64,000 bases of DNA from Thermodesulfobacteriota bacterium (lineage in GTDB: Bacteria > Desulfobacterota > Desulfobacteria > Desulfobacterales > C00003060). This document shows positions 476 through 35,782 of this stretch, one piece after another. The position numbers were made by a program, and so were the translations under genes. Position 1 is the stretch's first letter; each line of letters begins with the position of its first letter. The stretch covers positions 185,893 through 249,892 of the forward strand of contig JAXHVD010000002.1 of the NCBI GenBank assembly GCA_034189385.1, read 5' to 3'. The notes beneath the pieces were generated by a model. That model saw only the letters and a program-made list of their open reading frames with translations. It had not been told where the DNA came from and did no database searches.

Positions 476-1711
476 ATGAATATTACCAGAAGGCAATTTT
501 TGCACTACTGCACTGCCTCTGCCGCCGCCCTGGGCCTCAGCCAGATGGATCTCTTGAAGCTGGAAAAGGCCTTGGCGACACCGCAGACAGGCTGCGGCAG
601 CCCGACACCTTCGGTGATCTGGATGACTGGCCAGGCATGCTCCGGATGCCAGACATCGCTGCTGAACCGGGTGGTGGATACTGGTGGCACGGGCTACTAT
701 GATGCAGATTTGTTGAATGCCCTTACCGGCGGCGCATTTCCTCAAGGGGTCCCCAGCGATCCTATTCCGGAATTGAACGTGGTAAACGACGTGGCGGATC
801 TGCTGGTGGGCGATGCCGTTGGCACCCTGGTGCCGGCCATCACCCCAAGGGGCCTCACGTGGGCGCCATTTTCGAATGGTTACGTCACGCTGGAGTGGCT
901 GACCACGGTGAACGCCGGCGCCGGCGACATTAATGTCCAGCACATCAAGAACATCGTCAATACCGGCGGTTTTTTTCTGTTGCTGGACGGCTCGATTCCT
1001 GTGTTAGATGAGAATTTCTGTCTCGTCTTTGATAACGAGGTGAATGACGGTGTGGGAGGGACCAAGATCATTTCCAGCCTTCCGCTCGGGCCGATTACCC
1101 TGTCTGATGCCCTCAGGTGGATGATACCACAGGCAGCTGCCTGCATCAGCGTGGGCACATGTTCTGCCTTTGGAGGCATCCCGTCCGGCAAGAAGAACAA
1201 GACGGGCGCCATAGGGCTTCAGCAATTCATGAGCGATAATTCGCTTTCCAAGCCGTTGATCAATGTGCCCGGCTGTCCGCCTCATCCGGACTGGATCGTC
1301 TATCCGGTGGCACAGATCCTGATTCACGGCCTGCCGTCCGTACTGGCTCCAGGTTGGCTGGACGCCTGGGGCAGGCCAGCAGCGACTTTCGGCAATCAGC
1401 CCTTCTGCTCAGCGGCAGGTTCTTCCTGTGCGAACCACCCGTCCATGGGTGCGGGCTTTGCCCAACACCTGGGTGACGACGGTTGCCAGGGGAACATGGG
1501 CTGTAAGGGGCCCATCACCTTTGGGGATTGCCCTTCCCGTCAGAAGAACGTGTTCGACGACGGCACAGTGAACAACTGGTGTTCTGCCGGCTCCCGAGGG
1601 CCCAATATCGCCCAGGCCCGGCACGTTTGCCAGAGTTGTATTCAACCGGACTTTCCGGATCCACCAACATCCCCATTCTACGAGCCGGCATCCGGCGCTA
1701 GCCCGGTTTAA
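476..1711 (+). CDS. [NiFe]-hydrogenase small subunit, Tat-exported (group 1-like), 411 aa
   Basis: ATG at 476 after a GGGGGAGA RBS. Tat motif ITRRQFL. Proximal cluster motifs CSGC, VGTCSAFGG and VPGCPPHPDW; distal/medial region GC..MGCKGP..DCP..NNWC..CQSC. No C-terminal TM anchor. Confidence 0.95.
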   Translation: MNITRRQFLHYCTASAAALGLSQMDLLKLEKALATPQTGCGSPTPSVIWMTGQACSGCQTSLLNRVVDTGGTGYYDADLLNALTGGAFPQGVPSDPIPELNVVNDVADLLVGDAVGTLVPAITPRGLTWAPFSNGYVTLEWLTTVNAGAGDINVQHIKNIVNTGGFFLLLDGSIPVLDENFCLVFDNEVNDGVGGTKIISSLPLGPITLSDALRWMIPQAAACISVGTCSAFGGIPSGKKNKTGAIGLQQFMSDNSLSKPLINVPGCPPHPDWIVYPVAQILIHGLPSVLAPGWLDAWGRPAATFGNQPFCSAAGSSCANHPSMGAGFAQHLGDDGCQGNMGCKGPITFGDCPSRQKNVFDDGTVNNWCSAGSRGPNIAQARHVCQSCIQPDFPDPPTSPFYEPASGASPV

Positions 1712-1726
1712 AGGAGGTGAAATAGC

Positions 1727-4066
1727 ATGGCAACACTAAGAATAGCACCTGTTAATAGAATCGAAGGACATATGGATGTCTCGGCCACGACCGATGTGAA
1801 CAAGGTCGTCACTCACGTAGACAACGAGGTAGTCATGTTCCGCGGCCTTGAAAATGTCATGGTCAAGCGGGACCCGCGGGACGCACCCATTATCACGCCA
1901 CGTACCTGAGGCGTCTGACCGATTACACATGGCTCGGCGAGCCATAAAGCGGTTGGAGAGGCCTATGGGTTCAAGGTGGACTACTCTCACTCAAACACTG
2001 GTGGCTATCCAGGCGGACCTGCCGATTTTTGGGCAAACAACGCCAGCGGAACGCCCACCATCAACAAACTGTATGAGGATGTTCCGGCCAATGGCGTATT
2101 GCTCAGAAACCTGGCCATGGCGTCCAACTACCTCATGTCCCACATTCTGCATTTCTACCATCTGGTAGCCTTGGATTATGTGGATGTAAACGGCACGGGG
2201 CTGATCCCGAAAGGGTTCCTCTGCCCGAACTATGACAGTAACTACTACGCCAGGGGGATCGACCCTGTCTTGCAGACAGGCGGTCTCGGAGCGCCGGCGT
2301 ACACGGTCAACAATGCCCCTGTGGCGAACCCAAACGTTCCCGCAGGCGTTGCCGGCGATCTCACCCCCTACCTTGCAGGACAGTATGTGCGCGCCTTAAA
2401 GGCGCGCCGGATGGCCCATCAGCTCGGCGCCATCTTTGCGGGCAAGATGCCCCATGCCTCCTGTTTCACACCGGGGTGCGTAACGACTAAGTCGTACGAT
2501 CCCACGCCGGGCGGCTCTGACGCTGCCGTGGTGAACAAGGTTCACGAGCTACTCTACGGTGGGCCCGGATTTGACGCGACCGCCCCGGGTGCACTCACCA
2601 TGTCCAACCCCCATCCGGAAAGCCTCATGGGCTTTATCGGAAAGCCCAGCGATTTCTGGAATTGGGCTGCGGACGCCAGTGGATCCACAGGCGGTTTGGG
2701 CTTTGGCTTTGCGCCCGAGTTTCTCCCGCCATGGGCAGCCGCTGGTGCGGCAACCGCAGGACCACTGGCCGGCCTCCTTGGGTCAGGGCCGTGGACACAC
2801 GGCGGCACCTTCATGTTTGATACGGTGGCCGCTGCCCACTGCTTCCCCGAGTACTTCTGGATCGGTTCCGGCTACGGCCGTTACCTGGCCTGGGGGATCT
2901 TTGAGGGGGCAGCCCCAGGGCACCCGGACGAAAGGCTCCTGACCAGGGGTCGGGTCCACACGCCGCTGGCGCCCAATCCTCCGGGGACACCCTACGCATA
3001 TGACTACAAGCATCATGGTGCGGACCACTTGAAGGCCAAGGAGTTTACCACAAACTCCTGGTACTATGATCCCGCGGGGATCGACTACGGGCGGCACATG
3101 TGGAAGGGCAAGACCAAGCCGAGGTCCCGTGCGACCAAGCCCAGTGCCTACACCTTTGCCAAGACCCCGCGCTACAAAAACAATGCGAGCACGGCTGCCT
3201 GGGAGATTGCCGATCATCCCAACGCCGCCTATCTTCCCTACGAGGTGGGACCGCTTGCCAGGATGATATCCAATGCCTCTCTGCTGACCACACCGGGCGG
3301 CCCAGCCACAGCAGGCGAAGTGGTTGCCGTGGACAGCGGGGCCTTTGGGTGTTACTACCCGGGTATCCTCGCAGATGTGGATGCCGTTCTGGCTCCCGCA
3401 GGTGTCGGAGGACCATCGCCCATTGGCGTGTTCCCGGGCAGGGGAGTCAACATGACAGCGCACATCACCTTTCTGGCCGGTGCGGGCGTTTTCTACCTGC
3501 CGCCAAACGCCTTCTCACCACAGGTATTGGGGAACGGTTTCCACAGCGACTACATGGGCGGTGCCACGCTGGACAGGATCGCGGCCAGGACCCTGGAGAC
3601 GTACTACGTGGGGGCGCAGATGCTCAACTGGTTTAACGCCCTTAACCCAGCCGCCCAGTCCAACAAGACCCTGTTCTTTGACTATAGCGGCTTCACGAAC
3701 AAGACAGCGCCCAAGAAGGCGAAAGGCGCAGGCCTGACTGAGGCCCCAAGGGGCGCTCTCGGGCACTGGATCAAGATCGGCAAGCCTGACGGGACTTGGA
3801 AGGGCAAGACGGAAAGGTACCAGATCATCACGCCCACGGCCTGGAACATCAGCCCCAAGGATGCCGTTAATGCGACAGAGAAGACCCTGGGTCTGATGGG
3901 TCCCATTGAAAGGTGCATCTGGGGTACCCCTGTGGTGGCCGAATCAGAGCCGATCGAGGTGTTGAGGATTATCCATTCCTTTGACCCGTGCTGTGCCTGT
4001 ACGGTCCATCTGATGAACCCGAAAAAGGAGAAGGTGGCCGAGGTCACACTCGAAGCCCTCATGTAG
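1727..4066 (+). CDS. [NiFe]-hydrogenase large subunit read through two in-frame TGA codons (putative Sec61 and Sec64 in the L1 motif), 779 aa
   Basis: AAGGAGGT RBS. N-terminus PVNRIEGH...FRGLE...RDPRDA. ORFs 1727..1909 and 1976..4066 are in the same frame (249 nt offset), and the bridge reads RT-TGA(1907)-GV-TGA(1916)-PITHGSAS, matching RxCGxCPxxH. Also SHILHFYHL, EAPRGALGHW, TPTAWN, and L2 DPCCACTVH followed by an 18-aa extension. Confidence 0.93.
1917..1954 (+). promoter_or_regulatory. Putative bacterial SECIS element of the hydrogenase large subunit
   Basis: Upper stem ATGGCTC(1929-1935)/GAGCCAT(1939-1945) with a G-starting loop, beginning 10 nt after the second TGA. Lower stem GACCG(1917-1921)/CGGTT(1950-1954). 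Confidence 0.7.
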
Positions 4067-4555: not shown

Positions 4556-5026
4556 GTGGAGAGTGATAAGCCTATACTGGTTTTGGGCGTGGGCAACCTG
4601 CTGCTGAAAGACGAAGGGGTGGGCGTCCACGTGGCCCGAAAACTCATGGAGATGGACCTGCCGTCCCATGTGGAGGTCCTGGATGGCGGCACAGGCGGCT
4701 TTGATCTGCTGGATGAGCTCGAAGGGCGCAAAAAGGTGATCGTTGTGGATACGGCGCAGGCGGGAAAGCCTGCCGGGACCATGTATCGCATGACCACAGA
4801 GGACATTGAAAAGACGGAAAAGGCCCGCATCTCTCTCCATGAGATTGACATGACCGATCTGTTGAAGCTGGCCGACCTGTTCAAGATTGAAAAGCCAGAG
4901 ATCGTGATCATCGGCATTGAACCCAAGGACATGGAGAGCGCCAGCACGGAGCTTTCTCCGGAGATCGAGGCCCTCATTCCCAAGGTGATCGACGTTGTGC
5001 TCAAGGAAATAGGGGTAGATGAGTAG
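4556..5026 (+). CDS. Hydrogenase maturation endopeptidase (HybD/HyaD family)
   Basis: ILVLGVGNLLLKDEGVGVHV, VEVLDGGT, VIVVD, SLHE and IIGIEP motifs; adjacent to a large subunit with a cleavable C-terminal tail. Confidence 0.95.
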   Translation: MESDKPILVLGVGNLLLKDEGVGVHVARKLMEMDLPSHVEVLDGGTGGFDLLDELEGRKKVIVVDTAQAGKPAGTMYRMTTEDIEKTEKARISLHEIDMTDLLKLADLFKIEKPEIVIIGIEPKDMESASTELSPEIEALIPKVIDVVLKEIGVDE

Positions 5027-5688: not shown

Positions 5689-6636
5689 ATGATTTTGTTG
5701 AGGCGCATCTTCAGTAATAGGGGAATCATCAGGTCAAAATTGGCCTGGTTGCTTGTGGTGTTGTGTGTGGTGACCGTTCTTGTTCTTGTGAGATGGCCCA
5801 AGGAAACAAGAAAGGAATCCATAAAAACTGCATCAGTTGAAGAAGCCCAAGAAGAGGTTGTTGCTAAAGTCGCTGTGGAGGAACAAGAAACACTGCGAGA
5901 GGATCCGTTACCTGAGAAGTGGCCACAGAAAGAACCCGAAGAAGTAGAAATGGATGTGGTAATGACTTTACAAGGAGTTGTAACAAACAGTGATCCTTGC
6001 ATTCAGCTCCTTACTGTGGAGGGCTTTGATTTTGATACGGGACCTCTTGACGTGAGCGGTATTCGGGCCGGCGATGTCGTGAAAGCCCACTATGTTGAGA
6101 AAAGGCTAGGTCGGCGAAAGACCAATGTCTTGAAGTCGGTGGAATTCATTGCTGCTTCAGAGCAGAGTACTGCCCAGAGGGTCATACCCCAACGTGAAGA
6201 AGCGCCATTCAGAGCCGTGGCGGAACAAGAAGAAAATGAGGAATTCATGGAAGAAGAACCGCTACCCGAACCAGAGAAAACACTGGCAACGAGGGAACTC
6301 GCCGGGAAAGAACGATTTAATGGGCAGCATAAAGAAATAGCGGGGCCGGAATCCACTCAAGAGGGACGGCCTGAGGGAGAGAAGGAATTCGCTGAAGCTG
6401 AAGAAGAAATGTTAGAGGAGGAAGAGCAGGAAACAGACGTCACAAACACCATGGCAGGCCGGGTGACCGCTTGTGACCATTGTTTTCAGCTGATTACGGT
6501 AGGGGGCCTCGACTTCGACGGGGGGCGCCTTGACGTAAGCGGCATTCGGCCCGGCGATTATGTGGAAATAGCATATACAGAAAAGCCGTCTGGCAAGGTG
6601 ATAAAATCTATTGTGGTCATTGAAAGTAACCATTGA
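5689..6636 (+). CDS. Membrane-anchored hypothetical protein with two OB-fold-like (DUF5666-like) repeats and Glu-rich linkers
   Basis: N-terminal TM segment LAWLLVVLCVVTVLVLV. Internal duplication GVVTNSDPCIQLLTVEGFDFDTGPLDVSGIRAGDVV / GRVTACDHCFQLITVGGLDFDGGRLDVSGIRPGDYV. Confidence 0.75.
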   Translation: MILLRRIFSNRGIIRSKLAWLLVVLCVVTVLVLVRWPKETRKESIKTASVEEAQEEVVAKVAVEEQETLREDPLPEKWPQKEPEEVEMDVVMTLQGVVTNSDPCIQLLTVEGFDFDTGPLDVSGIRAGDVVKAHYVEKRLGRRKTNVLKSVEFIAASEQSTAQRVIPQREEAPFRAVAEQEENEEFMEEEPLPEPEKTLATRELAGKERFNGQHKEIAGPESTQEGRPEGEKEFAEAEEEMLEEEEQETDVTNTMAGRVTACDHCFQLITVGGLDFDGGRLDVSGIRPGDYVEIAYTEKPSGKVIKSIVVIESNH

Positions 6637-6692: not shown

Positions 6693-6755
6693 TAGTAGAA
6701 GTCCCACGTAAAAATCAGGTCTTTCCAACTGCGAAATCCGTAATTCCCTGAATTG
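6693..6755 (+). promoter_or_regulatory. Conserved tripartite upstream motif, copy B
   Basis: TAGTAGAAGTCCC..AAAATCAGGTCTTTCC..AAATCCGTAATTCCCTGAATTG; cores at 6695, 6719 and 6740, AATTG at 6751. Confidence 0.65.
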
Positions 6756-6917: not shown

Positions 6918-9848
6918 ATGCCCATATCCAGCAACTGGAAGAAGCATCTTTCGGTTCTTTTGCTCACGTTGACCGTGTTCGTCTTTGTGGGTGGTCGTAC
7001 TCTCCTACTGGCCGACGAGAACGATGCCCCCCACCAGACCCATCTGACCCTTGCCAGGGGCCCTGGCCTTGGAACAATTTGTACGCCTTGCCACACTGCC
7101 TCTCCTGGCATCTATGAGAATATCCGTTCCCCTTTGGCAGCTGCTTGCGTCACCTGCCACAGCCCTGGCGGACCATTTGATGGAGTGAATGACAGCGCTG
7201 TGGGCGCAGTGAACAATTGGGACAACTTGGGCGATCCAGGCGATGCTGCCGATTCCCTGATCTATGCATCATTTTATCCAGTAGATGTCAAACTGAAATC
7301 AGGAAAAGAAAAATGGTGTGCCACCTGTCACGATCAATCGGCCATGGGGGCGAACGTGATGGAGGAGTTCGAGGGATACGCAGACGACGCCGGCCTCCAG
7401 AGTAAATGGAAAGGCAAACAAGCTGCTCGCCCCGTGCAGTTGTGGTCTTACGTGCCGGACGAGCTGGGTGATTATGAGCTCGGCATCAGCGGCCAGTTTA
7501 TGCGCGTAAAACTCAAGTGGGACGGATCGGCCACCTATGGCTTGGTGAAAAGAAACTTTGCCGGCTCGCCTGAGGACCCTTATTTAGATCTAGGCGGTAA
7601 GGACTACTTCGGGTTTTACATGAAGGTGGAGAACAAGGGCAAGATCAAGAAGCTTAAGGTGAAGCTGAAGCTGATGGGGCAACTTACCTGGTGTACGGCC
7701 AAGTTTAAGGTGGACGCGGCAAGCGGCTTTGTGAATGACGTGTGGCATCTGGTCTTACTGCCCAGGGCGAGTTTTGACAACGACGCCTGTTTTGATGGGC
7801 TGGTAGACAAGATGAAGCTCGTTATCCTGGAGGGAAACCCTGGTGCGCCACCTGCGGTCACCTCTGTGTACTTTGATGCCTTTGGCTGTGACTTCACCGG
7901 AGCAAACGTGATAGGCGATAATGAGACCTACGGTTACTACAAGACAGGACACAAAGTCAACTGCACCCGCTGTCACGATCCCAGCAGCAAGCATATCGAT
8001 GGCAACAGGCGCCATGTCTTTGGATATATCAAGAAGAACGCAAATCCCACCAACTTCAGGTTTTATCCTGATCCTGCCAAACAGATGCAGCTTCCTTATA
8101 CGGAATATATTCCAGGGGCAGAGGGCTCCTTTGCCCTGTGCTATGGGTGCCATTTTGAGGAAAAGCTCATGGCGAACGAACCGGCAGAAAACCTGGAGAC
8201 CAATTTTACGGATGTAGGTTTCATCGCCGACGGGGCCCCTGATAATTTGCACTTATACCATGTAGGAGGGGAGCGCTATCCTGAAATCTCTGACCTAGAG
8301 GCCATCGTGTATCACGGCACATGCGTCCTTTGCCATGACCCCCATGGGCTGTTGAACCCAGCCATGGCCCGCAGAGAGATGGGCAATTTCATCTATTTTG
8401 ACCAGAATGGATGCGAAGTTGCCAAAGAGGAGTGGCATAACCCTGATGTAAATATGGGCGGTGCCCAGACAGAGGGATACGCCACCTATGAGCCTTTATG
8501 CTCTGAAGTTTGCCATATCAACGGGGTGCCACCGAATCCCGACTGCCAAGGGACCCATCCCTATATCAACTCTATGGGGATGGATGGGTGGTATACGCGG
8601 GGGTATGAAAGAGTCCCTCACAAACCAGGAACGGAGTTTGATCTTGACTGTTTTTTCTGCCACACGGCTGGACCTTCCCATGCTACCCACATCCAGACCA
8701 ATCCAAAGGGGCCAGCGCCCCTGGCCTGTGAAGACTGCCACCTTATAAACGAAGAAACCGTTTTTCAGATGGACAGGATGGTCCAACTGGATGTCTGCAA
8801 CCCCTGCCATAGCCCTGATGGTGCCTTTGATGGGCTAGATGACACGGAGTTTGGAGCAATAAACAACTGGGATAACGGCGTCTACGACTACGAGTCCGGC
8901 GGGAACAGCTTCAGGCCTGGAAAAGAGCAGTGGTGTGTGAGCTGCCATGACGATGGCACCTCCCTTTGCGACGGTGTGAGCGCTCCTGATGTGGGCATCT
9001 TCTACACCGGTGGTCACGGGAGACCCGGTGCCAGCGTGGAATGTCTGAGCTGCCATGATGCGACACGCACCCACATCGATGGAGAGGCCAGGACATACGC
9101 CTTTGACTCCCCATCCTATGATCCCGGTCTATCTGGTGTCACATACGCCTCGGGCTATCGGCTGCTGTATGTGGGTGGGAACGTCCCGCTCATGATCCCG
9201 GCTGACGTGACGATTACTTTTGACTGCACGAGTCAAGCCATCAAAGATAACGCCTTTAAGCTGTGCTTCAACTGTCATGATTCGTACAAGTTGTTCGATA
9301 ACACCCCTGGAGACGGCCTGGATACCAACTTCAAGCCGAGTCTGCCCGATCCTCCAATGGGTTACTCCTATGCCTATGGCAGTGAGTGGGACAACAATCA
9401 CCGCGCCCACCTGTTGAGCTTTGCCGGGCCATACTGGGATTCAGATTGGGACACTGGCACCATTGGCGGAACGGGCGCTGACGGACGCGAGTCTATGATC
9501 ACGTGCTCCTCCTGTCACAATGTCCACGGCGCTGCTGCTGCCCAGGCAGGCTGGACCAATGAGGCCATGATCAGGGACGGAAGCCTCGCAGGAAGGACCG
9601 GATATGGCTTCAGCTACGTGGTTGAGGATGTGGCGAGCGGCGGCTACCCTATGGTGACCTCCACCGGTGCCACTCAGGCAAACAGCGTTGGTGCTGTGTT
9701 CAGAAACAATACGGACAACATGTGCGGAGGGTCCTATTGTCACGATAGTCCCACTTCACCGCCTGGCAGCAGTTATGATGCCACGGGCATTGGCTGGGGG
9801 ACCTATCTAGAATACTACCGGCCCTGGCAGGACTATTTGGGAAATTAA
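6918..9848 (+). CDS. Large secreted multiheme cytochrome c (13 CxxCH plus one CX3CH and one CX4CH) with an inserted heme-free beta domain
   Basis: Signal peptide. Motifs CTPCH, CVTCH, CATCH, CTRCH, CYGCH, CVLCH, CSEVCH, CFFCH, CEDCH, CNPCH, CVSCH, CLSCH, CFNCH, CSSCH, CGGSYCH. Confidence 0.92.
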   Translation: MPISSNWKKHLSVLLLTLTVFVFVGGRTLLLADENDAPHQTHLTLARGPGLGTICTPCHTASPGIYENIRSPLAAACVTCHSPGGPFDGVNDSAVGAVNNWDNLGDPGDAADSLIYASFYPVDVKLKSGKEKWCATCHDQSAMGANVMEEFEGYADDAGLQSKWKGKQAARPVQLWSYVPDELGDYELGISGQFMRVKLKWDGSATYGLVKRNFAGSPEDPYLDLGGKDYFGFYMKVENKGKIKKLKVKLKLMGQLTWCTAKFKVDAASGFVNDVWHLVLLPRASFDNDACFDGLVDKMKLVILEGNPGAPPAVTSVYFDAFGCDFTGANVIGDNETYGYYKTGHKVNCTRCHDPSSKHIDGNRRHVFGYIKKNANPTNFRFYPDPAKQMQLPYTEYIPGAEGSFALCYGCHFEEKLMANEPAENLETNFTDVGFIADGAPDNLHLYHVGGERYPEISDLEAIVYHGTCVLCHDPHGLLNPAMARREMGNFIYFDQNGCEVAKEEWHNPDVNMGGAQTEGYATYEPLCSEVCHINGVPPNPDCQGTHPYINSMGMDGWYTRGYERVPHKPGTEFDLDCFFCHTAGPSHATHIQTNPKGPAPLACEDCHLINEETVFQMDRMVQLDVCNPCHSPDGAFDGLDDTEFGAINNWDNGVYDYESGGNSFRPGKEQWCVSCHDDGTSLCDGVSAPDVGIFYTGGHGRPGASVECLSCHDATRTHIDGEARTYAFDSPSYDPGLSGVTYASGYRLLYVGGNVPLMIPADVTITFDCTSQAIKDNAFKLCFNCHDSYKLFDNTPGDGLDTNFKPSLPDPPMGYSYAYGSEWDNNHRAHLLSFAGPYWDSDWDTGTIGGTGADGRESMITCSSCHNVHGAAAAQAGWTNEAMIRDGSLAGRTGYGFSYVVEDVASGGYPMVTSTGATQANSVGAVFRNNTDNMCGGSYCHDSPTSPPGSSYDATGIGWGTYLEYYRPWQDYLGN

Positions 9849-12362: not shown

Positions 12363-12463
12363 TAGCCTTTCCTTTTCCCTCACTATTACAACGGTTCAGT
12401 GGCTGCCGTGAAATGATGAAGTGATGGAATGGCGGAATGATGGGTTCAGAGGAAGAAAAAGAA

Positions 12464-14995: not shown

Positions 14996-15058
14996 CGGTG
15001 ATTGCCCTGTGTAAAAATCAGGTCTTTTCACACGGAAAATGAGTGGTTCTCCCAATTG
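14996..15058 (+). promoter_or_regulatory. Conserved tripartite upstream motif, copy C (upstream of the two-component system)
   Basis: GGTGATTGCCC..GTAAAAATCAGGTCTTTTC..AAATGAGTGGTTCTCCCAATTG; cores at 14998, 15022 and 15043, AATTG at 15054. Confidence 0.65.
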
Positions 15059-24305: not shown

Positions 24306-24971
24306 ATGCTTGAAAAAAGGATATTGGACATTGTCGTTTCCAGTGTGTTGATCATCCTGGCGTTGCCAGTCATGGCCCTGGTGGCCCTGTTGGTGAAACT
24401 CGACTCCCGTGGCCCGGCCATTTTTACACAGACCCGGATCGGTCAGGACCGCCGTCGGGCCAAGGCCTCTCGAGGGGGAGCAATGGCCCCTGCCTGTGAC
24501 ATGAGGGAAGAGGATCTGGGCGGAAAGCCCTTTACCATATACAAGTTTCGGACCATGGTCCAGGAGGCAGAGCAGCTCTTGCCTTGCCTCGTGAATCTGG
24601 GGGCCCTTAACGAGCCCGTTTACAAGCTACAAGATGATCCCAGGGTGACCCCCTTGGGAAGTCTTCTGAGGAAGGCCAGCCTGGATGAGCTTCCGCAACT
24701 GTTCAATGTGCTGAAAGGGGACATGAGCTTGGTGGGGCCACGGCCTGAAGCCATAGAAGTCGTGCAGCTTTATGAAAAGACGCATAAGAAACGGCTCCAT
24801 GCCAAGCCTGGCCTTACGGGCTTGCAACAGGTCACCTGTCGCGGAACGCAATCCATGCAACAGAGGCTGAAGTACGACCTCTATTACATCAAGCACCGCT
24901 CTCTGCTGCTTGATCTTGGGATCCTCTTTAGGACGGTATTCGTTGTCATGATGGGTACTGGGGCCTTTTGA
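24306..24971 (+). CDS. Polyprenyl-phosphate sugar phosphotransferase (priming glycosyltransferase, Bac_transf family)
   Basis: KRILDI, KFRTM, DPRVT, SLDELPQLFNVLKGDMSLVGPRP, KPGLTG. Confidence 0.95.
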   Translation: MLEKRILDIVVSSVLIILALPVMALVALLVKLDSRGPAIFTQTRIGQDRRRAKASRGGAMAPACDMREEDLGGKPFTIYKFRTMVQEAEQLLPCLVNLGALNEPVYKLQDDPRVTPLGSLLRKASLDELPQLFNVLKGDMSLVGPRPEAIEVVQLYEKTHKKRLHAKPGLTGLQQVTCRGTQSMQQRLKYDLYYIKHRSLLLDLGILFRTVFVVMMGTGAF

Positions 24972-25007: not shown

Positions 25008-25202
25008 ATGTTCGGAATCGGCATGCCAGAGTTGATCATCATTATGGTCATCATCCTCATCATCTTTGGAGCTGGAAAACTCCCGGAGATCGGAAGCGGT
25101 ATTGGCCAAGGGATCAAGAACTTTAAAAGAGCCACGTCAGGAGAGTTGGAAGAAAATACAGAAGCAAAAGAGATAGAAGGGCTAAAAGAGGAAAGAGCAT
25201 AA
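25008..25202 (+). CDS. tatA: Twin-arginine translocase subunit TatA
   Basis: [40 protein letters not shown]. Confidence 0.95.
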
Positions 25203-28200: not shown

Positions 28201-30066
28201 GTGCCGCAGTCGGGCTATGTAGCCAATGCTGGTGACTGTGACGACACCAACGGTGCCATTAATCCGGGTGCCACGGAAGTCTGCAATGGTGTGGATGACA
28301 ACTGCGACGGGACGACGGATGAGGGTTGCGCGACGTACTACCGCGATGCAGACGGCGACACCTATGGCGATGCCGGAGACACCACAGTGGCTACCAGCCA
28401 GCCAGCGGGCTATGTGACCGACTCGAGTGACTGCGACGACACCAATGGAGCGATCAACCCGGGTGCCACGGAAGTTTGCAATGGTGTGGATGACAACTGC
28501 GACGGAAACACAGATGAGGGTTGCGCGACTTACTACCGCGATGCAGACGGCGATACCTATGGCGATGCCGGAGACACCACAGTGGCTACCAGCCAGCCAG
28601 CGGGCTATGTGACGGATTCGAATGACTGCGACGACACCAATGGGGCCATCAATCCGGGTGCGACAGAAGTTTGTAATGGTGTGGATGACAACTGTGATGG
28701 CAATACAGATGAAGGCTGCGCGACCTATTATCGGGATGCGGACGGTGACACGTACGGCGATTCTGCAGACTCTACGACGGCGACGAGTCAGCCGGCCGGT
28801 TATGTAGCAAACGCTGGTGACTGTGACGACACCAATGGTGCGATCAACCCGGGTGCCACGGAAGTTTGCAATGGTGTGGATGACAACTGCGACGGAAACA
28901 CAGATGAGGGTTGCGCGACGTACTACCGCGATGCAGACGGCGACACCTATGGTGATGCTGGAGACTCGACCACAGCCACGAGTCAGCCAGCCGGCTATGT
29001 AACGGATTCGAGCGACTGTGACGACACCAACGGAGCCATCAACCCGGGCGCGACAGAAGTCTGCAACCTTGTAGATGACAACTGTGACGGAAACACAGAT
29101 GAGGGTTGCGCGACTTACTACCGCGATGCGGACGGCGACACCTATGGTGATCCTGGAGACTGGACTACAGCTACGAGCCAGCCAGCGGGCTATGTAGCCA
29201 ACGCTGGTGACTGTGACGACACGGACAGTGCCATCAACCCGGGCGCCACGGAAGTCTGCAATGGCTTGGATGACGACTGCGATGGGCAGAGCGATGAAGG
29301 GTGTCCGGCCCTGTATCAGGATGCCGATAACGACGGTTATGGAGATCCTGCCGGGCCTACAACGACCATTCCCCAGACAGGCTATGTGGCTGACGCAAGT
29401 GACTGCAACGACAGCGACAACACGATCTACCCCGGCGCCCCTGAGGCCTGTAACGGCATAGATGACGACTGCGACGGGACGATTGACGAGGGCTGTCCTC
29501 CTGTTACGTATTACTACCGCGACGCCGACGGCGATGGTTATGGCGATCCCGGTGATTCCGTAACGACACCGACATCAGGGTACGTAGCCAATAATGACGA
29601 CTGCGATGATACGAATGACGATATTCATCTCGGGGCCACGGAACAGTGCAATGGGGTGGATGACGACTGCGATGGGGCCACAGACGAAGGTTGTGTGATC
29701 TACTACGAGGACTCTGATGGGGATGGGTATGGAGATCCTGCTTCCACAAAGACCGTAGCATCGCCTGCGCCACCACCGGGCTATGTGTCTAACAGCAGTG
29801 ACTGTAATGACAGCAACGCCCTGATCTATCCCGGCGCCCCTGAGCGGTGTAACAACAGTAAGGATGATGATTGCGATGGTCTAACGAATGAAGGCTGCAT
29901 ATCCGGTTTAGGCGGTGGCGGCGGCGGCGGCTTGAACTATGTGGGCGGCGTGGCCTTGCCGGTAGATAAGCTTGGCCTGCTGGCCCCCTGGGTGGGTCTG
30001 GCCGCGTTGATGACGGCCATGATCGCCTTGGCAACATGGAGGAAAAAGCGAGGCAGTATCACCTAA
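25216..30066 (+). CDS. Giant Asp/Cys-rich surface protein with 21 putative metal-binding (MopE-related, PF11617-like) repeats and a C-terminal membrane anchor
   Basis: Signal peptide (AYA). Repeated YxDxDGDxYG...DCDDx5PGATEVCNGVDDNCDGxxDEGC. Poly-Gly linker, then VGGVALPVDKLGLLAPW, a TM helix and an RKKR tail. Confidence 0.9.
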   Translation: MASSHTRWEVRHGIQIGVASFLLIWAITTAGIPKAYAVTYELTGDGLGLSQGNHGTSLTISPELSLSALTWGNCCGYPTGYPGIIYLHQTDGTGVRWGSTGLSSKKISGWGIGRYESLIFDFSSGADAQSITIWINEIHKHGGPSGSPVDLWVKPSSGSAFEIDDVSSYLHYTDGDTAYVDFSELSDLSGVGSIERVIVRANYGFHLYISRIDCQPFTDADGDGYPADNDCNDGDPNINPGATEICNGVDDNCDGDIDEGCPIYYRDADGDGFGDPDDTTTVPQSGYVSNGSDCDDTNGSIYPGATEYCNGVDDDCDGQTDEGCALWYRDGDGDGYGHLTDSSTYQHDDYTTHNNGDCDDSDSSINPGATEVCDGIDNNCDGLTDEGCTIYYRDGDGDGYGDSTDSQIATSPPYGYVDNDGDCDDSDSSINPGATEVCDGIDNNCDGLTDEGCTTYYRDGDGDGYGDVTDSQIATSPPSGYVPNSDDCDDTDDTIYPGATEACNGVDDDCDGVTDENCAIITYYRDADGDGYGDPMDSTTGTTPPSGYVADSSDCDDSDSNVNPGATEQCNGYDDDCDSFTDEGCPLLYWDGDSDGYGNPAGPTTKIPQAGYVADASDCDDTNGAIHPLATEVCNGVDDNCDGNTDEGCATYYRDADGDTYGDSGDSTTATSQPAGYVANAGDCDDTNSAINPGATEVCNGVDDNCDGNTDEGCATYYRDADGDTYGDSGDSTTATSQPAGYVANAGDCDDTNGAINPGATEVCNGVDDNCDGNTDEGCATYYRDADGDTYGDPGDSTMATSQPAGYVANAGDCDDTNGAINPGATEVCNGVDDNCDGNTDEGCATYYRDADGDTYGDAGDSTVATSQPAGYVTDSSDCDDTNGAINPGATEVCNGVDDNCDGNTDEGCVTYYQDADSDSFGNSSASQVATSQPAGYVPTPGDCNDNDNTVYPGAAELCDGKDNDCDTQVDEGCTLLYWDGDSDGWGNPAGPTSTVPQSGYVANAGDCDDTNGAINPGATEVCNGVDDNCDGTTDEGCATYYRDADGDTYGDAGDTTVATSQPAGYVTDSSDCDDTNGAINPGATEVCNGVDDNCDGNTDEGCATYYRDADGDTYGDAGDTTVATSQPAGYVTDSNDCDDTNGAINPGATEVCNGVDDNCDGNTDEGCATYYRDADGDTYGDSADSTTATSQPAGYVANAGDCDDTNGAINPGATEVCNGVDDNCDGNTDEGCATYYRDADGDTYGDAGDSTTATSQPAGYVTDSSDCDDTNGAINPGATEVCNLVDDNCDGNTDEGCATYYRDADGDTYGDPGDWTTATSQPAGYVANAGDCDDTDSAINPGATEVCNGLDDDCDGQSDEGCPALYQDADNDGYGDPAGPTTTIPQTGYVADASDCNDSDNTIYPGAPEACNGIDDDCDGTIDEGCPPVTYYYRDADGDGYGDPGDSVTTPTSGYVANNDDCDDTNDDIHLGATEQCNGVDDDCDGATDEGCVIYYEDSDGDGYGDPASTKTVASPAPPPGYVSNSSDCNDSNALIYPGAPERCNNSKDDDCDGLTNEGCISGLGGGGGGGLNYVGGVALPVDKLGLLAPWVGLAALMTAMIALATWRKKRGSIT
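25870..29898 (+). repeat. Coding tandem repeat array, ~195-nt unit x21
   Basis: Counted 21 C..C..C..C units in the translation; central units are near-identical at protein level. Confidence 0.9.
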
Positions 30067-30146
30067 CCGTTCACGGAGTGTTGGAGTACTGGAGTGATGG
30101 AGTGTTGGAACAAATGACGGACCCCGCAAGAGGATGGGAAAGAGCC

Positions 30147-30989
30147 ATGAAAGGCTGTGCAGTGTCACGCCAACAACCTCTGCCTGTCCCGAAACAGACA
30201 CAGGGAGTGATACTAGGTTTTTTCTGTTTTCTCGCGTGCTTGTTTCTCCATCCGTCCGGTCAGGCATCTGACGTATACGCCGGCAAAGGGCCTTCTGCCA
30301 GGGCAGCCATTGTGGACCATTTGAGCCTTACGGAGCCCAACCCGAGCTTTGTCAAGGCATGCAAGGCCCTATTGGAAGGGGCCGGATTTGCCGTAGATTA
30401 CTATCAAGGTGAAGAGGTCACTGTGGACCTTTACAGGAATCTTCCCGCCCATGGATACAAGGTGATCGTTTTGAGGGTCCATTCGGCGTACATTCATAAG
30501 TATCTGTCCCTGGCCATGTTCACCTCTGAACCGTACAGCAAGGGGAAGTATGTCTATGAGCAGCTTCGAAACCGGGTGGCCAGTGGGCATCTTCAACCCT
30601 ATGAGATAGGGGACCCCCAGCAGTTCGTCATTACGGACAAGTTTGTCCGTTTCAGCATGAAGGGCTCCTTCAATGATGCCCTCATCATGATGATGGGATG
30701 CACGGGCGTCAAGAGGTGCGCGGCAAGCGCATTCATAGAAAAAGGGGCCAAGGCATACATCGGCTGGAACGGCCTGGTTTCTGCGGGCCACACGGACAGG
30801 GCGACTATCGAGCTACTAAAAGGCCTTCTACAGGAAAAGCAACCTATAGACCGGGCCGTGACAGAGACCATGAAAGAGGTGGGGCCTGAACCCCGGTACC
30901 AGAGCCGGTTGCTCTTTTGGCCCATTGAGGCCGGAAAGCAGACGGTGCATACGCCCCAGAACAGAATTGCTAAAGTGGCAAGCAAGTGA
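30147..30989 (+). CDS. Membrane-anchored or exported protein with a caspase/gingipain (clan CD)-like His/Cys dyad pattern
   Basis: Hydrophobic N-terminal segment, then VIVLRVHS ... LIMMMGC ... FIEKGAKAYIGW, the strand-His / strand-Cys layout of CHAT/C25-like folds. Start at 30147 is uncertain. Confidence 0.6.
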   Translation: MKGCAVSRQQPLPVPKQTQGVILGFFCFLACLFLHPSGQASDVYAGKGPSARAAIVDHLSLTEPNPSFVKACKALLEGAGFAVDYYQGEEVTVDLYRNLPAHGYKVIVLRVHSAYIHKYLSLAMFTSEPYSKGKYVYEQLRNRVASGHLQPYEIGDPQQFVITDKFVRFSMKGSFNDALIMMMGCTGVKRCAASAFIEKGAKAYIGWNGLVSAGHTDRATIELLKGLLQEKQPIDRAVTETMKEVGPEPRYQSRLLFWPIEAGKQTVHTPQNRIAKVASK

Positions 30990-31224: not shown

Positions 31225-32544
31225 ATGAAAAAAGAGACAGATCTTGACAGAAGAAAGTTTTTGAAAGGCAGCGTGATCGGGGCCGGTGTACTGACCACCG
31301 GCTTTGCGACCGGGCTGTCTTTACCGGGCACCGCCCATGCGTCGCTCCCCACGTTGCCGTTACCGTATTGTAGGATATATAACGGCTCAAGTTGGGTACC
31401 CAGTTCCGACCCAGGGTCATACAGCCCTTCGTACAGACAGGCTGTCCTTGACCCGGATGACGTGAGGGTCATGACCTGGTGGTATTACAATTCGGGCAAG
31501 GGGTGAATGCAGTCCTGTGTGTCAGGTTTGATGCAAGGATTCAAAGCGGCATTTGCCAGTGACAGCACGGACTGGGACTTTATTCCCTATGACATGTACA
31601 TGTACGGCGGAGGCGGCATTGGCGGTTGGGGCACCCTGTGCGGGATTCCCAACGGTTGCGCGGCCTTGACGAATCTCATCGGCCTCCACGGCGCCTTGGG
31701 ATCAGACATCCTGGGCCACTATTCCAGCAGCGAGTGGCCGCCTAGGACGCTTGCGGACATGTACCACGATCCCGATCCCGTTTACGGCCCCGGTGGCTCG
31801 GGCGGCTACACCTGGGTCAAGACACCCATGCATGATGACGACGTTTTGGCCCACGTGATTCCTTATTCACCCCTGTGCCACATATCCATCAGCAAGTGGT
31901 GCTATGCGGCGGGGGTCAACTTGGGTACCATGGGCACGGAAGGTTACCAGCACAAGAATGATCGTTGCGGCAAGATAGCCTCTGAGATGGCGGGTAAAAC
32001 TGCTGAAATGATCAATTATTACGCCCTTAACGTGGCCCGGTCAGACCCGTACGCGATCCCAGCGGCAACTGCAGACTGCTCTACCTGTCACTACACAGGC
32101 AGCGATCCCAATATAGCTCCCGCCCAGATCACCAAAATGGACTGCGCGGAGTGCCATGCGGTCACGCCCGACGCCGTTCATCAAGGCCTGAGGATGATCG
32201 TTGAAAGTGTGTGGACAGCAGACGGCTCCGGCACGCCCAAGAACACCTTTACCTCGGGTGACCCGATCCAGTACAAGGTTCGGTTCCACCTCTTGGGTGC
32301 CGGGTATTGCTACGTGAAGACCGGCGTGTCCAAAGTGAAAGACAGTGCCGGTGTCAAGATGCTGAAGCTTGTCAAGAGTGACACGTTAGTTGCAGCTACC
32401 TATGACTGGACGTGGTCTGATACCATCGACCCAACCGATGCTCTTGGCACGGCAAAGGTCATTATGCGTTTGAAGTGCTTCGACTATGAAGGTGGCAATG
32501 TCCTTGATAATCAGGAAATGAAGTACAAGTTTACCATCGTATAA
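31225..32544 (+). CDS. Tat-exported split-Soret cytochrome c / C-GCAxxG-C-C family selenoprotein (putative Sec94) with two CxxCH and a C-terminal Ig-like domain, 439 aa
   Basis: GGAGG RBS; DRRKFLK Tat motif. ORFs 31174..31506 and 31507..32544 abut in frame across TGA 31504. GKG-U occupies the first conserved Cys of the family, followed by GGWGTLCG, SPLCHISISKWC, DRCG, CSTCH, CAECH. Confidence 0.88.
31511..31541 (+). promoter_or_regulatory. Putative bacterial SECIS element
   Basis: AGTCCT-G-TGTGTCA-GGTT-TGATGCA-AGGATT. The upper stem starts 11 nt after the TGA and the loop begins GG, resembling the E. coli fdhF SECIS geometry. Confidence 0.8.
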
Positions 32545-33290: not shown

Positions 33291-33920
33291 ATGACCAGTA
33301 AGAGGAGCCTGTTGCTATTGGCCGGCTTTTTAGCGGTCTTCATCACAATGATAGGAGCAGCGAAAGCAGAAGAGGGGTTTCAGATTGACTCTGTAGTGGT
33401 CACTGATGCCTATGGTAACGAGATGGACGAATTCGAGGTCTATAACCCCGTCATGATAAAAGTGAATTATACCGTTGATGACGGGATCGCGCCCTGCTGC
33501 GTGAAGGTAATCGTGAAAGGCTTTGACCAGCGGCGTGTAAACAAACTGACTCTGGATTCTGCAGGTAGCGATACCATCACCGAGGCCCTGAATCCGACAA
33601 GATCCGGGGAGGCGAACATCAAGTGCATTTTGAAGGTGTTTAAGGACGGTGTGCTCCTGGGTAATAAGGACAAAGTCGTAAAGCACGTCACCATCATAGG
33701 TCTCCATGGTCCCGCGTGCTGGGGCTTAGAGGAATCCGAGTGCCGCAGTTGCCATGGGAATAATTTGGCAAACAGACACCACCTCACGGACACGGTTCTG
33801 AGAGACCACCTGTGTACGGTTTGCCACCCAACATGTACGCCAGGTATTCCCAATTGTCCGAATGGGGTGCTGTTGATTAGGGATTGCCTGACGAGCGGCT
33901 GTCACACTCCGATCGATTAG
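33291..33920 (+). CDS. Secreted Ig-like domain fused to an OmcZ-derived triheme module
   Basis: Signal peptide (AKA). C-terminal CRSCH..RHH..CTVCHPTCTPG..CLTSGCH is nearly identical to hemes 1-3 of 17103..19427. Confidence 0.85.
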   Translation: MTSKRSLLLLAGFLAVFITMIGAAKAEEGFQIDSVVVTDAYGNEMDEFEVYNPVMIKVNYTVDDGIAPCCVKVIVKGFDQRRVNKLTLDSAGSDTITEALNPTRSGEANIKCILKVFKDGVLLGNKDKVVKHVTIIGLHGPACWGLEESECRSCHGNNLANRHHLTDTVLRDHLCTVCHPTCTPGIPNCPNGVLLIRDCLTSGCHTPID

Positions 33921-33970
33921 GGGTGCGTTTAAGTGGGGTTGTGATTGGGAAAATCAAGGAAGGGGAAAGA

Positions 33971-35782
33971 ATGAAAACGGATCGGTCTGCATTTTTGTTT
34001 CTGACGCTTTTGGCACTGCCCATTTTAATCCTGGTTGGCGCCCCTCATGTTTATGCGCTCGGCCATTACGGCATTCCCGGTACCCTGGACGGTTGTGATG
34101 TGTGCCATGATTTCGCCGGTGGCTATTATGACAGCCCCACGTTGGGCAATCTTCGGTGGGTCAACTCCTCTATCGAATGGCCCTTGGGTACGGTCCACTC
34201 GCCCGTCAAGTTTACCATTTTTTCGAGCACTCTCCCTGCCGACGGGACCATGGGTGATGGCGACGACTTGACGCTGGATGGTCCCTGTGAAGTATGCCAT
34301 ACCACAGCAGATTACCACACCAATACAGGCGATGGAACGAACCATTTTGATGGTCAGAACTGCACGGCCTGTCATCCCCACTTTGCAAATGACATTATCA
34401 ATTACTTCGAGCCCCGTTTCATTGGCACGCAATCCCATATCACCCACTGGACAGATCCAAAGGGGCCTCAACTGGGAGAGGATACCTGCACGGTGTGTCA
34501 TTACGCAAGCGATTTTAGCCGGTTTGCCGACGGAGAACTCTTAGCCGACACGGCCATTTGTGATGGCTGCCATAGCCGTTACGGGGCCTATAACGGGGTG
34601 GACGATACCACCGTCGGGGCCAAGGCCAACTGGGAGGAAGGGATCTACGAAGCGAACGGGTCCGACCTGAAACCCGGAAAAGACGATTGGTGTGCCACCT
34701 GCCATGACAACGGGACCTCCACCGTGAATGGGGTCGATGCCCCCAATGTGATGGGCGATAACACCACCTATGGCTACAACCTGTCCGGTCACGGAGAATA
34801 TGCTCTTTTGTGTAAAGACTGTCACAGCTACACTGTGTTGCACACAGACGGTGATGCAAGAACGTACGCGGCTGCAAGCAATAACTACCGGGACGGGTAC
34901 AGGCTGAACGAAGACATGGCTGTTCCCCGAAATGGTGAGATCCATCCGCAAGCCTTCAGGCTTTGCACCAACTGCCATACCTATACAGACATCACCGGGC
35001 CCACAAGCAACTTCAGGGATGATGGAAAGGGCCTGCAGTTTCATGAAATGCACCTCAACTGGTGGCCTGCCTTTATTTGTGCGGACTCGGATTTTGATGG
35101 TGTAGGCTGCAGTTCAGGGATCTGTAAGGATTCTGCCATGACTTGTATCAACTGTCACAATGTTCATGGGTCGCCCACAGCGCCTATGATCCGCCACGGA
35201 GAGCTGATGAGCACTCCGGGTACGAGTGACAAAGTGCCTGCTTTGGATTTCCGTTGGTATAAGGCAGACGGTACGACGCAGACAACGGTACTGGAGGAGA
35301 GTCTTTATGGTGGTCTGATTTGCGGGCTGATGCCCGATGTCTCGGTGAACCATGTCTGCTCTGGTTGCCACACCACCGCGCAGTTAAAGTGGTACAGAAC
35401 CCCTGGAGGCCCTCTGGGCGTCACGGTGGAAGCGGTGTGGACCAGTACCCTGGCCGATGTCACCAAGACGGTATTTGCTCCCAATGAAGATATCCGGTAT
35501 CACGCGCGTTTTAAGATTGTCGGGTCAGGCTCATACTTTGTGAAGGCCGCTGATTCAAAGGCAAAGAGCACTTCCGGGATATTTTGGAAAACCGAACTCG
35601 ATCCAAAAAAGTTGACCCTCTCTGAAGGCACCTATGAGTGGACCTGGGATGAGGCCATTCCGGGAACGGCCACCCCAGGTTCAGGGGCAAAGCTCGTTGT
35701 TCTTATGAAGATGTTTGACGCCCCGGGAGGCACCTTACTGAGTAAAGAGAAAAAGACTGCAACCTTTAGCATCGCCCCATAG
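33971..35782 (+). CDS. Secreted decaheme cytochrome c with a C-terminal Ig-like domain
   Basis: Signal peptide (VYA). 10 CxxCH: CDVCH, CEVCH, CTACH, CTVCH, CDGCH, CATCH, CKDCH, CTNCH, CINCH, CSGCH. Core is homologous to the modules of 6918..9848. Confidence 0.92.
   Translation: MKTDRSAFLFLTLLALPILILVGAPHVYALGHYGIPGTLDGCDVCHDFAGGYYDSPTLGNLRWVNSSIEWPLGTVHSPVKFTIFSSTLPADGTMGDGDDLTLDGPCEVCHTTADYHTNTGDGTNHFDGQNCTACHPHFANDIINYFEPRFIGTQSHITHWTDPKGPQLGEDTCTVCHYASDFSRFADGELLADTAICDGCHSRYGAYNGVDDTTVGAKANWEEGIYEANGSDLKPGKDDWCATCHDNGTSTVNGVDAPNVMGDNTTYGYNLSGHGEYALLCKDCHSYTVLHTDGDARTYAAASNNYRDGYRLNEDMAVPRNGEIHPQAFRLCTNCHTYTDITGPTSNFRDDGKGLQFHEMHLNWWPAFICADSDFDGVGCSSGICKDSAMTCINCHNVHGSPTAPMIRHGELMSTPGTSDKVPALDFRWYKADGTTQTTVLEESLYGGLICGLMPDVSVNHVCSGCHTTAQLKWYRTPGGPLGVTVEAVWTSTLADVTKTVFAPNEDIRYHARFKIVGSGSYFVKAADSKAKSTSGIFWKTELDPKKLTLSEGTYEWTWDEAIPGTATPGSGAKLVVLMKMFDAPGGTLLSKEKKTATFSIAP

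Follow-up and report, generated by a model that had tools for sequence, protein, structure and literature searches.

A conserved hydrogenase–OmcZ-family cytochrome module in a Thermodesulfobacteriota genome

The window analysed here, a stretch of 64,000 nucleotides from a sulfate-reducing Thermodesulfobacteriota bacterium of sediment (assembly GCA_034189385.1, contig JAXHVD010000002.1; G000:C12:185893-249892 in our numbering), encodes an unusual group 1 hydrogenase, both N-terminal nickel ligands of which are predicted to be selenocysteine, together with two octaheme cytochromes of the OmcZ family. An initial annotation had combined about 35 kb of same-strand genes into one apparatus interconverting H2 and extracellular electrons. 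Scans of open reading frames (ORFs) and domains recovered all the gene classes it listed, on the + strand and within 476-35782, but conserved linkage in related genomes holds for a core only and not for the whole 35 kb. This core consists of an OmcZ-family octaheme, a small subunit exported by the twin-arginine (Tat) pathway, a long large subunit with an N-terminal UxxU motif (U, selenocysteine), the maturation protease and a PpiC foldase, often with tatA. The hydrogenase–OmcZ-family module is real, conserved and apparently undescribed: no description of the linkage was found in the literature searched, which took in little subscription literature and no supplements, and two supplements (the 90 OmcZ homologs of PMC13748539 and the cytochrome and hydrogenase tables of PMC10553843) may contain these proteins. 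Research on corrosion, electroautotrophy and syntrophy has long asked whether extracellular electrons enter sulfate reducers directly, via cytochromes, or indirectly, as H2. The module provides a two-protein candidate that would join the direct and the H2-mediated routes and that can be expressed and assayed (an OmcZ expression system exists in Shewanella).

The hydrogenase–octaheme module

The features of the window that belong to the core are as follows.

476..1711, + strand: hydrogenase small subunit with a Tat signal and without a C-terminal membrane helix (PF01058/PF14720; profile match to 1CC1)
1727..4066, + strand: hydrogenase large subunit, a long form of 779 residues with R-T-U-G-V-U, DPCCACTVH and a cleavable tail (PF00374, E 1e-83)
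1907..1918, + strand: two in-frame TGA codons (U61, U64), predicted from sequence and conservation to encode selenocysteines as terminal and bridging Ni ligands
1929..1945, + strand: predicted bacterial selenocysteine insertion sequence (SECIS) hairpin, its loop starting with G, 11 nt 3′ of the second UGA (folding)
4556..5026, + strand: hydrogenase maturation protease (PF01750; TIGR00072 above cut-off)
10065..12362, + strand: OmcZ-family octaheme precursor 1, heme domain and IPT/TIG domains (alignment member; profile matches 7LQ5)
12437..14095, + strand: double-PpiC foldase 1, its true start probably further downstream (rotamase Pfams)
14628..14963, + strand: tatA copy 1 (PF02416)
17103..19427, + strand: OmcZ-family octaheme precursor 2, with eight heme motifs, three His-His pairs and three IPT/TIG domains (profile and model)
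19571..21247, + strand: double-PpiC foldase 2 (Pfam)
25008..25202, + strand: tatA copy 2 (PF02416)

The best PDB matches of the large subunit are group 1 hydrogenases, with the NiFeSe enzyme HysAB among the best, and the Tat small subunit, the L1 and L2 motifs, the C-terminal tail with its protease and the placement among group 1 sequences all agree with this class; the tree contained no named HydDB references and the subgroup is assigned by best match only. We saw neither a membrane anchor nor a lipobox in the enzyme, and no cytochrome b partner for it. The UxxU hydrogenase singled out by the initial annotation is indeed there: residues 61 and 64 are encoded by in-frame TGA, and the C-terminal motif, DPCCACTVH, is an ordinary one. 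We compared it with a clade set of 50 further loci from genomes of the genus and from metagenomes, 30 of which were placed by tree; the other 20 are mostly partial and were assigned by their tblastn rank. The tree, of 140 large subunits (FastTree, local supports), unites the 32 long-form rows in one clade among group 1 (support 100; one long-branch join inside the hydrogenase clade is flagged), and 30 of the 32 are UxxU. Over the 50 loci the N-terminal motif is UxxU in 47 and CxxC in two, and one locus lacks that end, while the C-terminal motif is all-Cys in every row that has it. The clade large subunits are 639-857 residues long, against a mean of 509, and are richer in Gly/Ala/Pro and poorer in charge. 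Many have D-F-C or D-Y-C at the C-terminal motif rather than the usual D-P-C. A profile search found both TGA codons in eight of 37 genus genomes, and one all-Cys paralog besides; 400 other genomes drawn from the phylum, with two candidates scored per genome, gave no match at E 1e-60, so that the enzyme is rare there rather than absent.

Both N-terminal Ni ligands are thus predicted to be selenocysteine, on the basis of a conserved UGA aligned to Cys, a SECIS hairpin and a decoding machinery seen as tRNA-Sec and SelB in the host genome. The SECIS-like hairpin folded from the first UGA has a z of −3.45. The loop carries the G in 29 of 30 distinct UxxU segments compared with 40 of 114 CxxC segments (these are kin and not independent), the mean hairpin energy is −9.9 kcal/mol for UxxU and −7.0 kcal/mol for CxxC, and the stems differ by compensatory changes as judged by eye. 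Selenocysteine engineered at each of the four ligands retains activity (PMC8020662; for this and the other papers cited by identifier, statements concern the accessible parts of the text), and therefore a site with two of them is plausible. It is very improbable that the UGA codons have another fate, being read as cysteine by a tRNA-ReC system or lying in a dead gene. A tRNA-ReC is enriched in genomes with group 4 UXXU enzymes (PMC13582414), and a fold that starts at the second UGA alone does not reach significance (z −1.26; 20 of 200 shuffles), but both codons are kept in those 47 loci down to about 32% identity, with the compensatory stem changes, and the genome holds one tRNA-Sec, one SelB and one ordinary tRNA-Cys, with no tRNA-ReC candidate from ARAGORN or Rfam, which may miss tRNA-ReC. 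Gene callers truncate the large subunit at its UGA codons, and motif-based surveys of hydrogenases would therefore likely miss the UxxU clade.

Two other sets of group 1 enzymes came to light. Six of 16 genomes drawn from the same order (G034, G028, G027, G025, G035 and G032; loci L021-L026) encode an ordinary-length enzyme with CxxU (R-S-C-G-V-U) and a G-loop hairpin in all five segments folded; this exceeds the two group 1 exceptions cited in the accessible part of PMC13582414. A separate small set, of about 550-610 residues, also has a predicted N-terminal selenocysteine, as UxxU in L200 and L219 and as CxxU in L206, L213, L226 and L227. It lacks an OmcZ-family neighbour; the three members parsed have a distal Cys, and L219 has a four-heme gene upstream.

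The small subunit departs from its relatives in the Fe–S relay. The best match of the clade profile is the NiFeSe small subunit 1CC1 (E 5e-72; IHENCP aligns to FCEDCP). Ligands were counted in the 26 sequences parsed by pattern, of 44 loci given: in all 26 the distal His is replaced by Cys, and in 24 the medial cluster has four Cys. The distal ligand is His in 31 of 34 controls, and the three exceptions belong to a sister group that also has N-terminal selenocysteine. In an engineered A. macleodii enzyme, changing His to Cys and Pro to Cys together increased H2 evolution 3-4-fold, and in D. fructosovorans the H184C exchange left almost no uptake (PMC3701524). By analogy, the hydrogenase is likely biased toward H2 evolution. 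It would be a natural group 1 hydrogenase with selenium predicted at both the bridging and the terminal Ni ligand, and its Fe–S ligand set matches the one designed by engineers for more H2.

As claimed by the initial annotation, there are two OmcZ-like/PpiC units in the window, with a double-PpiC gene, encoding a prolyl isomerase, directly 3′ of each OmcZ-family octaheme. Single-sequence PDB searches of the octahemes (phmmer) did not find OmcZ. The alignment of 14 relatives, used as a profile, matches OmcZ30 (7LQ5) with E 9.5e-9, and the profile of 111 relatives (A4) matches residues 31-452 of the 473 of OmcZ50 (8D9M) with E 5.3e-18, across the heme and C-terminal domains. Each window octaheme has seven CxxCH motifs and one CX7CH or CX4CH, and both contain three His-His pairs, a hallmark of the OmcZ family (PMC13748539). 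The full-length model of octaheme 2, built with 111 sequences, has a mean predicted local distance difference test score (pLDDT) of 78.5, and its C-terminal part folds as IPT/TIG domains (Z 14.7; root-mean-square deviation 1.4 over 84 residues). Fold searches with this apo model returned only IPT/Ig matches, and the 14-sequence AlphaFold heme domain has a pLDDT of 37. Judged from these profiles and motifs, the window octahemes are OmcZ homologs and candidates for a nanowire role. The OmcZ-type family is large, with 260 proteins of at least 614 residues. A third paralog in the host genome (G000:C12:17380-19515, L237), like one in G052:C18 (L255), is split into two ORFs of about 475 and 230 residues at a similar place, and this genetic split might replace proteolysis.

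The adjacency of the two genes is a property of the clade. Where a clade locus extends 1 kb or more beyond the start of the small subunit gene, as 25 do, the next gene upstream is a same-strand OmcZ-family gene in 22 (20 of 23 after two near-duplicates are dropped). This holds for none of 114 other hydrogenase loci, of which 68, from group 1, have a flank of the same length. The three misses are L033, L151 and L152; the last two are close relatives of the window's enzyme on contigs that end before the site matching the window's octahemes, 6 kb downstream. PpiC lies downstream in ten of 19 clade loci with at least 3 kb, compared with none of 69 controls, and tatA is found in six of the 50 loci. 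Moreover, all eight genus genomes that carry the enzyme also have an OmcZ-family gene. In the distant locus L190, the large subunit of which is 32% identical, the order is decaheme (62%), octaheme (49%), both hydrogenase subunits, protease, tatA, PpiC, a MopE-repeat protein and ORF317 (60%). A protein labelled Thermodesulfovibrionales shares 80% identity with the L190 small subunit, and the module therefore probably spans two phyla, with members in Desulfobacteria and Nitrospirota.

The hydrogenase-adjacent octahemes are polyphyletic and come from deeply different subfamilies, so that the partner gene would have been swapped while the adjacency was kept, which argues for selection. Octaheme 2 of the window is sister to the L190 octaheme, and the hydrogenases of the two loci fall in different subclades; the window is a mosaic, and its octaheme–PpiC unit is duplicated. 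Small subunits and their neighbouring octahemes gave a Mantel r of 0.83 (n 14), a value that shared descent confounds and that was discarded, and a complex prediction for the small subunit and the octaheme domain scored 0.00 and was counted neither for nor against an interaction. In L180, L186 and L190, FdhE lies directly upstream of the decaheme–octaheme–hydrogenase block, preceded in L186 and L190 by a molybdopterin oxidoreductase and Fe–S genes; formate may feed the same module.

Possible directions of electron flow

We propose, with a probability of roughly 0.45, that the hydrogenase and the cytochrome form a unit that exchanges extracellular electrons with H+/H2, likely with a bias to H2 evolution, the cytochrome being the dedicated redox partner. 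The changed distal ligand and the near-obligate adjacency suggest this partnership. The OmcZ-family cytochrome would be exported beyond the outer membrane, as is OmcZ. Electrons from reduced minerals, partner cells or the biofilm matrix would pass through its hemes to the all-cysteine Fe–S chain of the small subunit, and from there to the predicted two-selenocysteine active site, where H2 would evolve. The H2 could be recaptured by two ordinary hydrogenases and feed sulfate reduction and the Wood-Ljungdahl pathway. The enzyme might lie in the periplasm behind a porin–cytochrome conduit (here of the OmcKL type) or at the cell surface, and it would work like the MIC hydrogenase of methanogens, with a cytochrome antenna added. 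The hemes of OmcZ span −420 to −60 mV (PMC9473688).

A heme range of −420 to −60 mV overlaps the H+/H2 couple at the low H2 pressures of sediments. The host genome (4.13 Mb, 90% complete) encodes DsrAB and CdhC, and its contigs C56 and C16 each carry another NiFe hydrogenase, in which the motifs are ordinary. That on C56 is an ordinary periplasmic group 1 enzyme, which favours the direction from extracellular electrons to H2 for the window's enzyme. In a more far-reaching version, tentative and rather doubtful, an undescribed hydrogenase subgroup, with two selenocysteines at nickel and an all-cysteine Fe–S relay, would serve, at the cell surface or beyond it, as an enzymatic electrode on OmcZ-family wires and convert electrons from minerals, metals or partner cells into H2, or the reverse. 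If true, 'direct electron transfer' and 'H2-mediated' routes would be united in one mobile module of sulfate reducers and Nitrospirota.

Several observations weigh against the proposed unit or narrow it. The clade loci are kin and not independent. The Cys-type paralog L033 has no OmcZ neighbour, and L150, 86% identical to the window's enzyme, has no module gene in the 10 kb downstream. The link is weaker the other way round: OmcZ-family genes occur without the enzyme in five genus genomes, and G020 (98% complete; L249, contig C20) keeps the split-Soret-like, seven-heme, octaheme, PpiC and sugar-transferase genes in order with no hydrogenase. A single H230C change in A. macleodii increased uptake and decreased evolution (PMC3701524), and therefore the argument for a bias is indirect. 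Regarding wire formation, OzpA cleavage makes OmcZ wires (PMC9473688; bioRxiv 10.64898/2026.07.18.739370), and two S8 queries found no such subtilase in the 50 clade loci, many of them short, nor on contig C12. The barrel of a porin–cytochrome conduit was found with two queries in five of eight carrier genomes and 14 of 29 non-carriers, so that it is not enriched, and in three carriers none was found; the second query was a 722-residue protein that only its position and C-terminus mark as a barrel. Finally, the sole secretin in the host genome is PilQ, so that a type II pathway able to export a folded hydrogenase is not apparent.

The same partners could work in the opposite direction: H2 would be oxidised and its electrons would cross a porin–cytochrome conduit and leave along OmcZ-family wires, with partner cells or minerals of Fe(III) or Mn(IV) as acceptors, as OmcZ serves Geobacter anodes. 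Group 1 hydrogenases are mostly uptake enzymes, which speaks for this direction, as do the OmcKL-type conduit of the host genome and the 16- and 25/26-heme clusters that adjoin the module in G011, L164 and L211; the characterised OmcZ proteins, moreover, export electrons (PMC9473688, PMC13748539). We nevertheless regard it as unlikely in view of the D. fructosovorans uptake defect, of the ordinary periplasmic enzyme already present on C56 and of the three carriers in which no porin was found. It is equally possible to see in the octaheme an uncleaved and unpolymerised monomer of the periplasm or envelope, a private substitute for cytochrome c3 that would feed inner-membrane complexes with no extracellular electrons involved. 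The lack of an adjacent protease, a C-terminal part longer than in OmcZ50 with its three IPT domains, and the points just made on PilQ and porins would fit such a monomer. Yet IPT-domain multihemes, adhesin-like repeat proteins and sugar transferases accompany the module in several loci, and unlinked subtilases occur in six of six genomes searched, one paralog (in G006 and G001) lying beside one, so that this alternative too appears improbable.

Quite unlikely, in our view, is a mere co-location, by which the genes would be neighbours only through a common island, foldase or regulon with no electron link. The hydrogenase and octaheme trees are incongruent, as the placement of octaheme 2 illustrates, and OmcZ-family paralogs often lie elsewhere in the genome. 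On the other hand, direct upstream adjacency is kept across what are probably two phyla and across several cytochrome subfamilies and is absent from the 114 control loci, and the altered distal ligand suggests that the redox partner has changed. The exchange of extracellular electrons with H+/H2 by a hydrogenase–cytochrome unit thus remains the reading that we prefer.

The OmcZ-family paralog that lies beside a subtilase is transcribed divergently from this protease of 671 residues (G006:C77, L247; G001:C1, L250). The subtilase is confirmed by Pfam in G006, where the paralog stands beside formate-dehydrogenase-type genes. The absence of a porin–cytochrome conduit from the window, noted by the initial annotation, is borne out: the OmcKL-type decaheme and MtrB/PioB barrel lie on another contig (G000:C63:30867-33796, L238) and belong to the GSU2203/GSU2204 families above NCBIfam cut-offs (PF11854). 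A six-frame PF11854 search of the genome that returned no porin was a false negative, as the C63 protein scores above cut-off when scanned directly. This pair lies about 9 kb from a selenocysteine-containing paralog of the split-Soret-like gene described below.

Accessory genes and genomic setting

The remaining features of the 35 kb are the following.

5689..6636, + strand: membrane-anchored accessory protein (no Pfam/NCBIfam match; Atlas feature scores <0.8; in 0 of 50 clade loci)
6708..6724, + strand: candidate regulator-binding motif, copy 1 (exact 17-mer)
6918..9848, + strand: secreted 15-heme cytochrome, accessory (motif count; weak MtrC-domain Pfam match)
15011..15027, + strand: candidate regulator-binding motif, copy 2 (exact 17-mer)
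15196..16029, + strand: HisKA_3 histidine kinase without a clear sensor domain (Pfam)
16008..16685, + strand: NarL/LuxR-type response regulator (Pfam)
21303..21653, + strand: PilZ-like protein (below Pfam cut-off)
21677..23155, + strand: B12-binding radical SAM protein, HpnJ-like (below cut-off)
23241..24287, + strand: GT2 glycosyltransferase (Pfam)
24306..24971, + strand: phosphoglycosyl transferase, Bac_transf (Pfam; homolog in 4 of 50 clade loci)
25216..30066, + strand: MopE-motif repeat surface protein of 1616 residues with a hydrophobic and basic C-terminal tail (PF11617 ×21; 195-nt repeats)
30036..30989, + strand: ORF317, secreted protein (60% identical ortholog in the distant locus L190; unnamed Atlas clusters)
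31225..32544, + strand: Tat-exported split-Soret-like diheme predicted selenoprotein with TGA at 31504-31506 and a C-terminal β-sandwich (1H21, E 7e-13)
33291..33920, + strand: β-sandwich joined to hemes 1-3 of an OmcZ-like protein (sequence comparison)
33971..35782, + strand: secreted decaheme cytochrome with a C-terminal β-sandwich (orthologs in L180, L186 and L190)

Most of the inventory of the initial annotation stands at the level of single genes: the 15- and ten-heme cytochromes, the selenocysteine-containing split-Soret-like protein and two tatA genes are present, the adhesin-like protein is a MopE-repeat protein with 21 Pfam matches, and the glycosylation and two-component genes are recognised as a GT2 enzyme, a phosphoglycosyl transferase, a histidine kinase and a NarL-type regulator. 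As parts of an H2/extracellular-electron apparatus they fare less well than the hydrogenase–octaheme core, as four kinds of gene (15-heme, split-Soret-like, glycosylation and two-component) are accessories of variable occurrence, each found in one to four of the 50 clade loci. The 15-heme protein (13 CxxCH, one CX3CH and one CX4CH) is homologous to the decaheme family in three of 50 loci, a kinase/regulator pair lies upstream of the octaheme in two and MopE-repeat homologs occur in two. The orthologs of the decaheme, 39-62% identical, lie upstream of the octaheme. The gene at 33291-33920, annotated as a three-heme cytochrome, does encode hemes, but these are the first three of an OmcZ-like protein, fused to a β-sandwich and ending at TAG; its N-terminal part has no match in 36 other genus genomes, and the gene, probably a chimera containing an OmcZ fragment, may therefore be a relic. 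An ESM Atlas search left ORF315 and ORF317 unexplained.

The claim of a shared upstream motif holds in a narrow form. Only two exact copies of the 17-mer exist in the genome, one ahead of the 15-heme gene and the other ahead of the two-component system, and the hydrogenase has none in front of it. A related motif lies 5′ of the OmcZ-family gene in five of 18 relatives' loci, where 0.004 would be expected from its frequency in the host genome, and a 14-mer scan of 17 intergenic regions revealed no motif common to most genes.

The split-Soret-like protein has no match in a Pfam scan. Its TGA and hairpin are kept in the C63 paralog and in G020, with Cys instead in the C29 paralog, and it probably belongs to the C-GCAxxG-C-C selenoprotein family listed in PMC13188914. 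A β-sandwich-like C-terminal domain of about 120 residues is common to Tat-exported split-Soret-like proteins (32176-32541 in the window) and to the decaheme exported by the Sec pathway (35405-35779), with paralogs on C63 and C29; it may serve in sorting or anchoring.

Directly upstream of the window, inspection of the ORFs shows hypB/D/E/F and several two-component genes. Downstream of the 35 kb, the region 36170-63868 contains, by eye, radical SAM, five phosphodiesterase/sulfatase-like, flippase, glycosyltransferase and O-antigen-ligase-like genes and is a probable exopolysaccharide cluster; domain scans covered 36170-38002 and 38554-39381. Elsewhere in the genome, a lipoprotein-like ORF of 5398 residues (G000:C17:1845-18041) lies immediately 3′ of the pilQ secretin gene, and G000:C1:320590-329586 encodes two 1300-residue paralogs of the window's large cytochromes, with 13-14 CxxCH and Golvesin-like C-terminal domains. 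In wetland metatranscriptomes (n=5), 5-13% of the sequence words are present; contigs assembled from four runs, short and mostly <90% alike, overlap relatives of the hydrogenase and octaheme genes and can show neither expression nor its level nor co-expression.

Comparison with known systems

The cytochrome part of the module resembles the omcZ operon of Geobacter sulfurreducens (OmcZ GSU2076, OzpA GSU2075 and a prolyl isomerase; 7LQ5, 8D9M) in its octaheme homology, three His-His pairs, C-terminal β-sandwich and adjacent prolyl isomerase, which in Geobacter is needed for wire expression (bioRxiv 10.64898/2026.07.18.739370). However, the window-type precursor has 680-960 residues compared with 473 in OmcZ and lacks the CX14CH interface loop of OmcZ, with CX4CH at another heme; no subtilase adjoins it, and in most loci a hydrogenase operon follows directly 3′. 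The archaeal OmcZ2 is a further relative (PMC13748539). HysAB uses cytochrome c3. This periplasmic group 1a enzyme (Desulfomicrobium baculatum 1CC1/4KL8; Desulfovibrio vulgaris 5JSU) is the best small-subunit match and shares Tat export, a 4-Cys medial cluster and the lack of a membrane helix with the clade. It carries its selenocysteine in a C-terminal UxxC, whereas the clade has both N-terminal ligands predicted as selenocysteine; its large subunit has about 500 residues rather than 639-857, its distal cluster is His-Cys3 where Cys replaces His here, and only the clade has an OmcZ-family neighbour. All HysAB NCBIfam scores of the window enzyme are below cut-off.

The group 4 UXXU [NiFeSe] enzymes (Takano et al. 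2026, PMC13582414) share the N-terminal UXXU and one downstream G-loop SECIS. They are membrane-bound energy-converting complexes, whereas the window enzyme matches group 1 and its locus has no membrane subunits. The accessible part of that paper describes UXXU in group 4 only, with two group 1 CXXU exceptions cited (Baltazar 2011), and a group 1 UXXU hydrogenase was likewise not found in the accessible literature that we searched, supplements being outside its scope. The MIC hydrogenase FohAB of corrosive methanogens, proposed to turn extracellular electrons into H2 (PMC6181927, PMC12667266), is similarly Tat-exported, anchorless, clustered with a protease and tat genes and near glycosylation genes. 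As described in the accessible text it is archaeal, with no outer membrane, no cytochrome partner and a carbonic-anhydrase-like gene, and this description sets it apart; among the 24 window proteins scanned there was no fohE-type carbonic-anhydrase-like protein and no TatC, only TatA. For the OetABI/OmcKL conduits of syntrophic sulfate reducers (Murali et al. 2023, PMC10553843), the likeness lies in the OmcKL-type pair of the host genome and in the 16/26-heme cluster with a probable barrel that adjoins the module in G011. In the systems treated in the accessible part of that paper the proposed wires are of the OmcS, OmcX and Apc2a types and hydrogenases are described as lost in two partner clades, whereas here a hydrogenase is tied to an OmcZ-type gene. 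By these features the enzyme falls outside HysAB, the group 4 UXXU enzymes and the MIC core, and its cytochrome locus lacks ozpA, while all the parts come from known superfamilies.

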